A DNA stretch of 64,000 nt from a virus. Every line of letters begins with the position of its first letter. Within the stretch, counting starts at the first letter, position 1. Both the position numbers and the translations under genes were made by a program. Under the pieces are notes generated by a model. It saw only the letters and a list, made by a program, of their open reading frames with translations, had not been told where the DNA came from and did not search any database. Positions 53,762 through 54,909 of the stretch are shown here, one piece after another. Location of the stretch: positions 33,102 to 97,101 of IMG/VR virus record IMGVR_UViG_3300045988_087149; one strand, written 5' to 3'.

Positions 53762-53790
53762 TTGACAATCAATAGATTGTGTGATATAAT
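53762..53790 (+). promoter_or_regulatory. Sigma70-type promoter, TTGACA-17-TATAAT with TG extended -10
   Basis: TTGACAatcaatagattgtgtgaTATAAT. Begins one nucleotide after the upstream stop codon (53757-53759). Confidence 0.7.
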
Positions 53791-53796
53791 ACAACC

Positions 53797-54867
53797 ATGG
53801 AATTGCGGCTAATATCTGCGGATTTAGTCTTGGCTTGGGGATGTGTTCTACAAGTTCCATAATAGAGGAAAAGCCTGAACGCTTTTCGCTGTCATATGAC
53901 AGAATTTATCTTATCGGTAGCGTCAGTTGCAAATGGCGCTACCACCCTTAAATTGATTCATTCTCTACTAGGTGATAGCTACGGCTGTGTTGATCATGCT
54001 TGTGGGGCGATTGACCCACCTAGCAGAGTTGAATATAATCGAGCCGTAATCTGCAATTCAGCAGAGCCTAATACGAGCATGACATTGGTTGTGGCGGGCT
54101 ATGTCAATATAGTATCGTAAACTGTATCGGCTCAGTTTTCATCTCGACCACGCAATCTCTAAAGTATCCCGTTTAAGTGAGCAACGGCGAATCTGTAAAT
54201 GGGCGTGTTGGAGATTTATAACCGACAAAATCTTATTCATCCTGCCTTTCTCGAATCCTTGCGTTTATACGTGGGGTATTGATGTAGAGAGGGTGGGTAT
54301 TCATCTCATGTACCATGCGTACAAGGAGTTCTTGAAGTCGTTAATAGCGGCTTTTGCAAAATCCTATCCTAGACGATAGGCGTATAGCAACATGTGTGTT
54401 ATATGAGCGTATGAAGCATAGAACCGGGTTGTCTTTCGGCAATATGTGGACGTTTACATTGGGTTTTCAGCATACCGCAAGGCAACAAGAAAATGCTGAC
54501 CGACTATGCGGTAAAGATGGGACAACAGGTATCATAGGAGCCAATGACGAACCATATAAAACATAACAGGGAGTGGCGCTCGATACCGGCATGCGCTTGA
54601 TAAATACCGGACATTAATGAGTCCATAGGTAAGGACGTTAAAACTGCCTGTCGCTACTACTCATTGGCGGCTATGAATATCCGAAAGGAGGTCACTATTC
54701 TCTTGAATTATCCACTGGTTTATCCGAAGCATAATTAAAGAAAGGATGGTGGTCAGAGCCCATTGGCTCATATCTACAATAAGCCCAACTCAATGGGAAC
54801 TGTTGTTTAACTGAATATTGTACATTGACAAATACGAAGCAGCTGAGAGCAATCTTGGCTGCTTCGT
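53797..54867 (+). ncRNA. ORF-free transcribed block of about 1.07 kb; candidate large structured RNA (or packaging-site region)
   Basis: Lies between a perfect promoter and a 10-bp hairpin (54834-54867). Stops are frequent in all three frames, and the short track ORFs lack an RBS. Several local hairpins: CTGTCATATGACAG at 53890-53903, CCTATC/GATAGG at 54363-54380, GAGCC/GGCTC near 54756-54769. Confidence 0.35.
54834..54867 (+). terminator. Strong hairpin ACGAAGCAGC-14 nt-GCTGCTTCGT; possible terminator or processing site (weak U-tract)
   Basis: Read directly. Followed by CATATTTATAGG. Confidence 0.4.
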
Positions 54868-54909
54868 CATATTTATAGGAAAATAAACGGAACGGAAAGG
54901 AATGAGAAT

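Follow-up and report, generated by a model that had tools for sequence, protein, structure and literature searches.

A gene-free block precedes the terminase genes

We analysed a stretch of 64,000 nucleotides (hereafter the window) of a viral genome, positions 33,102 to 97,101 of IMG/VR record IMGVR_UViG_3300045988_087149, and in particular a non-coding block of about 1.1 kb that separates a metallophosphoesterase gene from the putative terminase genes (Table 1). The preliminary description, made from the sequence alone, had taken this block for a candidate large non-coding RNA, either GOLLD/ROOL-like or of a new class, or else for a long leader containing a cos or pac site. The feature proved to be real and unusual, and it had been correctly called non-coding, structured RNA; its identity as one large RNA was wrong. 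The block is instead a series of short RNA cassettes that are lost, gained and reordered among related phages, a cassette-island description that we hold with high confidence. This island is accessory and non-coding, and it stands at the head of the packaging and late genes of an SPbeta-like, temperate phage of Clostridia in the human gut.

The product of the upstream gene matches PHROG 284 ('exonuclease', E 3.6e-36) and has 25% identity (E 3e-23) with its yonJ-type counterpart in an SPbeta-like prophage of Bacillus; the record of SPbeta likewise annotates yonJ as 'exonuclease'. The protein encoded downstream, the putative small terminase, matches PHROG 3314, a family of unknown function, and gave no match in a Pfam search. 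It also matched nothing in GTDB representative genomes, so that no close prophage or host was found there.

Stop codons interrupt all frames of the block, as had been claimed. The longest plus-strand open reading frames (ORFs), of 74 aa (53896-54120) and 70 aa (54354-54566), have no Shine-Dalgarno sequence by eye, no tblastn match in phage records and no PHROG match, and alignments show that both are broken in relatives by indels of 1, 2 and 11 nt. With no homologues, and frameshifted in relatives, they were rejected as coding. Short ORFs behind Shine-Dalgarno-like stretches in cassettes G and K were also rejected, since their spacing is wrong and neither their starts nor their frames are conserved. 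The block, with 42.5% GC, is less AT-rich than other intergenic DNA of this phage, and a GC content as high is reached in just 3.9% of 1150-nt windows. The whole window has 38.4% GC, and two gene-free stretches that are clearly AT-rich (40655-41791 and 47349-48005) have 28%. No gene for a reverse transcriptase, Cas, IscB/TnpB or integrase is adjacent, none having been found in 48021-59841; an HNH ORF lies ~3.3 kb upstream of the block and an integrase gene elsewhere in the window. All of the local hairpins that had been listed exist. The terminal hairpin is present as well, with a stem of 15 bp rather than the 10 bp given previously, and it ends 42 nt before the ATG at 54910.

Table 1 Features of the block and its neighbourhood. 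Presence of cassettes is counted among 61 spacers including that of the window; z is the score of single-sequence folding against shuffles.
Feature	Position	Strand	Observations
Metallophosphoesterase/'exonuclease' gene, SPbeta yonJ homologue	52575..53759	+	Pfam Metallophos and Metallophos_2
Non-coding block	53760-54909		Between the metallophosphoesterase gene and the 275-aa gene preceding the large terminase
Promoter P1, TTGACA-17-(TG)TATAAT, host sigma-70/sigmaA type	53762..53790	+	12/12 match
Cassette A: two small hairpins within a closing stem	53797..53862	+	29/61 spacers; z -1.6, weak
Cassette B: three consecutive hairpins (53868-53887, 53889-53902, 53916-53943)	53863..53956	+	35/61 spacers
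Cassette C: three-way-junction RNA, no known family	53957..54037	+	53/61 spacers, the most widespread variable cassette
Promoter P2, TTGACC-17-TATAAT	54011..54039	+	11/12 match; inside the 3′ half of cassette C; overlooked in the preliminary description
Cassette D	54038..54121	+	19/61 spacers; z -0.5, fold not significant
Cassette E	54122..54227	+	7/61 spacers; z 0, fold not significant; few variants
Cassette F: DUF3800-VIII RNA (Rfam RF03075), orphan copy	54236..54303	+	13/61 spacers; z -3.5
Cassette G: two-hairpin element CUCAUGUACCAUG-GUACAAGGAG, then hairpin and UUUUG	54303..54357	+	36/61 spacers
Cassette H, 5′ part: two hairpins, CCUAUC/GAUAGG and a 9-bp stem	54358..54405	+	z -3.3
Cassette H, 3′ part: drum RNA (Rfam RF02958), diverged copy	54406..54503	+	39.5 bits; cassette H as a whole in 50/61 spacers
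Cassette I	54504..54556	+	31/61 spacers; fold not significant
Cassette J: two sequence types, conserved ends	54557..54675	+	44/61 spacers; z -1.2
Cassette K: long stem sequestering a AAAGGAGG-like (Shine-Dalgarno-like) stretch, and two hairpins	54676..54808	+	60/61 spacers
Cassette L: 15-bp hairpin, GCAA loop, terminator-like, weak U tract CAUAUUUAU	54834..54867	+	54/61 spacers; z -5.2
5′ untranslated region and ribosome-binding region of the next gene, GGAAAGGAAUGAGAAU-AUG	54868..54909	+	Read from sequence; conserved in relatives
Putative small terminase gene (275 aa)	54910..55737	+	Named from position only, directly 5′ of the large-terminase homologue
Large-terminase homologue	55934-57598		48% identity to the annotated TerL of Enterocloster phage PMBT24

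Related phages carry a mosaic of cassettes in the same spacer

With both flanking genes as anchors, relatives were retrieved from IMG/VR and human-gut metagenomes. Their contigs, most of them 50-100 kb long, gave 61 usable spacers together with that of the window. From the stop codon of the phosphoesterase gene to the start of the next gene these spacers range from 258 to 2054 nt, and tiling each of them against a pan-library resolved 33 architectures among the 61. About 12 cassettes of 50-150 nt, named A to L, were distinguished, along with extra ones that the window does not have (N1, N4, N5, N8 and N9). Besides the window, the full A-L set is found in three other entries, at least one of which duplicates a contig already sampled. 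Each of the cassettes A to J is missing from some relative, and seven spacers keep K-L alone (~260 nt). Cassette order changes as well, G preceding F in L007, L093 and L106, and the same positions serve repeatedly as recombination junctions. The segment F+G, which L023 and L101 are without, is bracketed by an 11-nt direct repeat (CAAAATCYTAT at 54226 and 54357). The flanking phosphoesterase gene is ~95% identical in most relatives, and a second allele is 47% identical. This mosaic excludes one conserved fold of 1.1 kb and shows cassettes A-J to be dispensable.

A single large ornate RNA of ~1.1 kb, whether GOLLD/ROOL-like or of a new class, is accordingly scarcely credible. The length of the block, its lack of genes and its raised GC content would suit such an RNA, as would the promoter and the hairpin at its two ends and several long-range inverted repeats (for example 54532-54547 with 54661-54676). 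However, no Rfam match to GOLLD, ROOL or HEARO was obtained, either at the gathering threshold in the window or even at E<=10 in 53600-55000. Nor is the block inherited whole across the 61 spacers, each internal cassette being absent from some close relative and the order being variable. Structural support is local and arises cassette by cassette. Sliding-window folding z-scores were modest, unremarkable over much of the block and in places like those of the coding flanks. A long, gene-free and GC-rich block need therefore not be one RNA, a caution for similar cases.

The spacer acts as a general insertion hotspot, as protein genes have been inserted in some relatives. In L086 (spacer 862-1746) a 242-aa ORF resembling a GIY-YIG endonuclease by its motif only, with no Pfam match, lies inside cassette K. 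Several relatives (L098 782-2023; L097) carry, whole or in part, a 356-aa ORF insert between K and the next gene, again with no Pfam match.

The closest cultured phages are Enterocloster phages of ~100 kb, whose large terminase is 48% identical and which have neither the phosphoesterase gene nor the block. When the whole block was compared by blastn with 50,697 phage records, no match was found. The large-terminase gene of one of them, Enterocloster phage CB457P1, is interrupted by a group I intron (L002 7372-7703; 93.6 bits) together with an endonuclease ORF, and such introns and endonucleases commonly move among these phages.

Two cassettes belong to known RNA families

Cassette F is a DUF3800-VIII RNA. 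It scores 46.0 bits, compared with a gathering score of 40.2, over model positions 1-64 of 64, and copies in relatives score 41.3-54.3 bits. The minimum free energy (MFE) fold of the window copy agrees with the model structure, a long hairpin whose internal loops bear the conserved core; in its full-length match, its hairpin and its CGAA...CGUU...ACG...UGUAG core it is like the family at large. A degenerate pattern search for the core returned 94 viral and 45 bacterial loci. A complementary outer stem built from different sequences is present in ~116 of the 134 pattern matches that were scored, and all 14 of the loci sampled from the search score 46-80 bits in Rfam.

In 19 of these loci (among L196-L240, L155 and L182), from Bacillota, Bacteroidota, Chloroflexota, Pseudomonadota and others, a DUF3800 gene identified by Pfam lies 0-23 nt from the 3′ end of the RNA, on the opposite strand and tail-to-tail in 18 of the 19. 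This convergent arrangement is reminiscent of antisense-RNA toxin-antitoxin pairs. The core of the window RNA is 95% identical over 58 nt to RNAs of gut Oscillospiraceae genomes and of viral contig L155, a similarity that does not extend past the RNA. At two of these loci, L202 and L155, a DUF3800 gene is linked to the RNA.

The window copy differs from the 19 canonical loci in being an orphan, no DUF3800 gene having been found within the 64-kb window. Among the tested ORFs of at least 90 aa in the window, no match to PF12686 (E<=0.001) is listed; the alignment-mode Pfam scans give the best 25 families, and for the 1080-aa ORF DUF3800 is absent from such a list. A tblastn search of the window with 20 DUF3800 proteins gave nothing better than E 0.045, with no relic of such a gene. 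That the block holds a decayed DUF3800 gene was rejected on the same grounds.

Near-invariant DUF3800-VIII RNAs of ~80 bits occur in a sizeable group of gut phages, on IMG/VR contigs of ~30-75 kb and ~52% GC (L107-L195; 21 loci by lysin clustering). At the two loci inspected the RNA lies downstream of endolysin and holin genes and no DUF3800 gene is evident nearby; this context is rough, since ORF calls are unreliable in these GC-rich contigs.

The 3′ part of cassette H is a diverged drum RNA, which was detected in a permissive Rfam scan (39.5 bits, E 1.4e-5, model positions 1-112; gathering score 43). Seven relatives (L011, L024, L028, L074, L083, L098 and L105) have drum at the same position in the spacer, with 43.3-49.1 bits, and their copies align with that of the window. 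The inner hairpin covaries (CG/UA 13:11, GC/CG 14:11), and the 3′ stem, read by eye because MAFFT loses register in this part of the alignment, is kept by compensating changes in five versions (CAGCAU/AUGCUG, CAGCAC/GUGCUG, GCGGU/ACCGC, ACGGU/ACCGU and CAGGA/UCCUG). The window copy keeps the conserved UGAA, GGA, GGGUU, ACC, CAA and GAAAA blocks of the family. Drum has been described as followed by a Rho-independent terminator (Weinberg et al. 2017, PMC5737381). By eye, the window copy has no canonical terminator directly after it, and no associated protein gene was identified. A terminator scan found no site in 54504-54833, and the next one on the plus strand is the hairpin of cassette L.

A second cassette polymorphism is seen in the spacer between the large-terminase and portal genes, where most relatives carry drum with 45-58 bits (for example L015 6691-6804). 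In the corresponding spacer of the window (57599-57743) Rfam found nothing, and thus no drum. The near-identical L003 has drum in that spacer and is without an element of ~100 nt that is present in the window.

When eight variant spacers with extra cassettes (including N1, N4 and N5) were searched with Rfam, drum and DUF3800-VIII were the only families found. The eleven DUF3800 motifs, drum and skipping-rope were described in 2017 (PMC5737381) and look sophisticated; that study linked the drum, skipping-rope and DUF3800 motifs via their associated genes and offered no function (Weinberg et al. 2017, PMC5737381). Our literature search on drum, skipping-rope, DUF3800-I and PF12686 returned no functional study after 2017.

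Further cassettes have folds of their own

Single-sequence folding is significant for B, C, F, the two hairpins of H and L, and not for D, E, I, J or drum itself. Cassette B has a z-score of -4.8, with 0 of 200 shuffles equally stable, and its second hairpin changes from CUGUC/GACAG to CCGUC/GACGG in L018 and L020, a compensatory exchange. Cassette C (z -3.3) shows 98.8% of cells paired in 36 distinct sequences, against 31-45% in controls with slid partners. Four of its pairs change on both sides, which 1 in 500 shuffles reaches. We assign this fold to the plus strand because its frequent G-U pairs would be A-C mismatches on the other one. In cassette G 98.9% of cells are paired, with a covariation score of 0.239 versus 0.135 in shuffles, none of 500 being as high. 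The 5′ part of cassette H is conserved in 26 distinct sequences. Pattern scans of IMG/VR with cassettes C and J each matched this phage lineage only.

Cassette K (z -1.9) is near-universal and is kept in the minimal spacers of 258-262 nt; indels on both strands of its stem co-vary. In relative L019 (3925-3958) the hairpin of cassette L is an exact 34-nt inversion, by which the stem is kept and the loop complemented.

For at least five cassettes (B, C, F, G and H), a separate fold is thus backed by stability, by covariation or by a family model. The earlier characterisation of the block as non-coding, promoter-fronted and rich in conserved plus-strand RNA structure is borne out by DUF3800-VIII and drum and by the covariation in C, G and H.

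These data also bear on whether the block is functionless recombination debris, a collection of decayed genes and of scars left by homing endonucleases or introns. Such an origin would be in keeping with the GIY-YIG-like and 356-aa ORFs inserted in the same spacer of relatives, with the HNH ORF that apparently splits the YonO gene of this phage (see below), with the group I intron in the TerL gene of Enterocloster relatives and with cassettes D, E and I, which have no structural support. Nevertheless, we regard it as improbable: two cassettes match curated RNA families, pairing is conserved with compensatory changes in C, G and H, and cassette G remains 84% conserved between phages whose proteins are ~25% identical. 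Moreover, no protein similarity was found in any tested frame and the promoters are conserved.

Promoters of the host type front the cassettes

The promoter claimed at the start of the block is indeed a perfect consensus with a TG extension; it starts at the third base after the TAA stop codon (53757-53759) of the preceding gene and not at the first. This promoter, P1, is kept in all relatives that carry cassette A. Across the window we counted 20 perfect promoters of this class and 4 with one mismatch, 24 in all, compared with 1.44 expected from shuffles. Most have TTGACAA and the TG extension, and nearly all are on the minus strand before early genes. From this excess we take P1 to be a member of a real class of host-polymerase promoters of the phage. 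The -10 hexamer of the second promoter, P2, sits exactly on the commonest recombination junction (q278/279), and most variants of this junction rebuild a -10-like hexamer.

P1 and P2, which belong to this early class, are predicted to transcribe the cassettes on the plus strand. Transcripts made by the host polymerase would mostly end at the hairpin of cassette L, and late read-through may also span the block.

Four promoters of the class, at 47526-47851, face both ways in a spacer of 28% GC upstream of the YonO gene. This spacer is the positional counterpart of the yonR-yonP region of SPbeta, where packaging starts.

SPbeta has a counterpart of the block

A similarity to SPbeta surfaced only via the DUF3800-VIII search. 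In SPbeta, 1.68 kb without annotated genes lie between yonN, which encodes HU, and yonK, followed by yonJ. Rfam finds DUF3800-VIII in this stretch, on the strand of the late genes, and the GenBank record of phage Goe14 annotates skipping-rope and DUF3800-VIII in the equivalent one. Over 55 nt, cassette G has 84% identity to SPbeta (L241 2500-2555), and it is also present in Goe14 and in a B. glycinifermentans prophage; in all three it lies ~65 nt upstream of DUF3800-VIII. The proteins of the window phage and of SPbeta are only ~25% identical. In eight Bacillus SPbeta-like loci DUF3800-VIII is found near a homologue of the window phosphoesterase. In L239, which was examined in detail, it precedes yonK and homologues of the phosphoesterase (25% identical) and of the large terminase (26% identical). 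Genes follow the order yonO, HU, the gene-free block, yonK, yonJ (the metallophosphoesterase) and terminase.

The gap in SPbeta is transcribed by YonO as the leader of the late operon and has been called an 'unannotated non-coding RNA' (Forrest et al. 2017, PMC5467207). The primers of that study (PMC5467207) bracket positions 1546-1736 of the SPbeta locus, 1207-1397 nt upstream of yonK. With its start there, the SPbeta block is a transcribed leader of >1.2 kb that contains both G and DUF3800-VIII.

Like SPbeta, the window phage has a YonO-like polymerase, an HU-like gene, a yonJ-type exonuclease and a homologous large terminase, and its block is likewise gene-free, >1 kb long, in the same neighbourhood and equipped with DUF3800-VIII and cassette G. 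The block of the window is therefore homologous in kind, and in two elements, to the late leader of SPbeta. The two differ in position, the window block lying downstream of the yonJ homologue and directly before the putative small terminase, whereas that of SPbeta lies upstream of yonK-yonJ. Only F and G can be aligned between them, and the window block has sigma-70 promoters of its own. The region of the YonO start site in SPbeta showed no similarity to 47301-55000 of the window.

The gene of the YonO-type polymerase is apparently split in the window phage. Positions 48021-49625 encode the N-terminal part (Pfam RdRP), 50629-51561 match positions 567-845 of the 847 aa of PHROG 8308, and an HNH endonuclease ORF (49775-50422) lies between them. 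Rfam found no intron in this region; the split could be due to an undetected intron or to a free-standing homing endonuclease.

The comparison with SPbeta also helps to judge the suggestion of a pac or cos region, in which the block would be a DNA element recognised by the terminase, with its repeats and hairpins acting as DNA. The position directly upstream of the terminase genes and the near-universal K-L would agree with this, as would the presence of DUF3800-VIII in other phage groups near small-terminase genes or the end of the late operon. In SPbeta, though, packaging is of the headful type and starts between yonR and yonP, upstream of yonO (Kohm et al. 2021), which by analogy argues against a pac site in the block. 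In addition, A-J are dispensable, no arrays of protein-binding repeats were found in the block, and the G-U-rich covariation points to a constraint at the level of plus-strand RNA. We therefore consider a packaging site very improbable.

The suggestion of a long leader is, in contrast, plausible by analogy, since in SPbeta the YonO-dependent late operon begins with the equivalent block, as a leader of at least 1.2 kb. In its strict form, in which the block acts purely in cis on the late or packaging operon through attenuators, elements of processing or stability, or translational elements for the terminase genes, it is the main rival to the trans-acting role proposed below, and we judge it rather unlikely. 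In its favour, cassette G, which is common to Bacillus and gut phages, has an attenuator-like end made of a hairpin and UUUUG; K-L sequesters a Shine-Dalgarno-like stretch and places a strong hairpin just before the putative small terminase; and in seven other prophage loci DUF3800-VIII lies 24 nt before the small-terminase gene. A-J cannot, however, be required in cis, because close relatives with the same flanking genes are entirely without them, and 33 architectures in near-identical backgrounds are unusual for a regulatory leader. Outside phages, and across phyla, DUF3800-VIII lies tail-to-tail with DUF3800 genes, and P1 and P2 are of the early host-polymerase class rather than of a late class. 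A purely cis-acting leader hence fits the SPbeta data and K-L, but not the turnover of A-J or the pairing with DUF3800 outside phages.

A role for orphan RNAs against DUF3800 systems

As a whole, the block is best explained as a dispensable, promoter-driven island of orphan small RNAs that probably mimics the partner RNA of host DUF3800 systems, an explanation to which we give an even chance. The mimicry itself is put forward tentatively, as a possible function. The cassettes would be expressed as small RNAs or within a leader, and the orphan RNAs would act in trans, imitating the partner RNA and so neutralising or occupying DUF3800-type systems of the host. We propose this role because the window has orphan copies of RNAs that are normally found beside genes for DUF3800, an RNase H-like protein. 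DUF3800 is an accessory domain of type VII retrons and accompanies Cas12a2/a3 systems. An arms race between mimics and DUF3800 proteins would have the rapid turnover of cassettes as its consequence. A precedent is known in phage PhiTE, whose pseudo-ToxI RNA mimics the partner in a protein-RNA toxin-antitoxin system (PMC3475682).

Several points weigh against this explanation. The 64 kb inspected belong to a genome of 80-100 kb, and a DUF3800 gene could lie beyond the window. DUF3800-VIII recurs by late or packaging genes in several phage groups, which may mean a cis role in late transcripts. For drum, the window copy falls short of the gathering score and has no significant MFE fold of its own. 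Structural support is scant or absent for cassettes D, E and I and also thin, though less so, for A and J, so that some of the block may be filler or recombination debris. The cassette sequences are closely related and the covariation counts modest, with kinship ignored, for which reason we treat these counts as supportive and not as proof.

A wider reading, which we offer as unlikely and more speculative, is that SPbeta-like phages from Bacillus to gut Clostridia carry, at the start of their late genes, a fast-evolving island of RNA antidotes that disarms DUF3800 immunity of their hosts. DUF3800-VIII, drum, skipping-rope and unclassified cassettes such as C would be the antidotes, as detached copies of the RNAs that partner RNase H-like DUF3800 modules. 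They would be made twice, early by host-type promoters and later as part of the late leader. If true, this would reveal DUF3800 and its RNA as a widespread protein-RNA defence or toxin-antitoxin-like system.

The RNA families involved are already known, and the leader RNA of SPbeta had previously been noted. What is new is the cassette organisation, the orphan status, the conservation of cassette G across genera and several unclassified structured cassettes. DUF3800-associated RNAs thus occur in phages as orphans, detached from their protein, and in SPbeta-like genomes these orphan RNAs are bundled at one fixed site, in a hypervariable island that has promoters of its own. Since SPbeta can be manipulated genetically in B. 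subtilis, and transcription of its block is established, the function of DUF3800 RNAs becomes testable there. Cassettes B, C, G and K add new candidate structured RNAs.

Other features of the window

Three tRNA genes on the minus strand (Met-CAT, Leu-CAA and Ile-TAT; 31538-33062) lie ~21 kb from the block. Three stretches of 1-2.7 kb (36729-39447, 27865-28920 and 30366-31822) have no ORF of at least 110 aa, and Rfam found only tRNAs in them; they may hold small genes or further unclassified RNAs. Modification of its DNA bases by the phage is suggested by Pfam matches, in the early region on the minus strand, to PAPS reductase, DUF1599 ('nucleotide modification associated'), radical SAM and dCMP deaminase. 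A beta-CASP/RMMBL nuclease is encoded at 26142-27557.

Comparison with known systems

Like GOLLD and ROOL RNAs, the block is phage-borne, gene-free and structured. It differs from them in matching neither model, in not being conserved as a unit and in its distance from the phage tRNA genes. Another likeness is to phage morons and anti-defence islands: the block is a unit of promoter, cargo and terminator between conserved phage genes, dispensable and hypervariable. With the pseudo-ToxI of PhiTE, the block shares a cargo that resembles the RNA partner of a host protein module. It is unlike both morons and PhiTE in that this cargo consists of several unrelated structured RNAs, rather than a protein or a tandem repeat.

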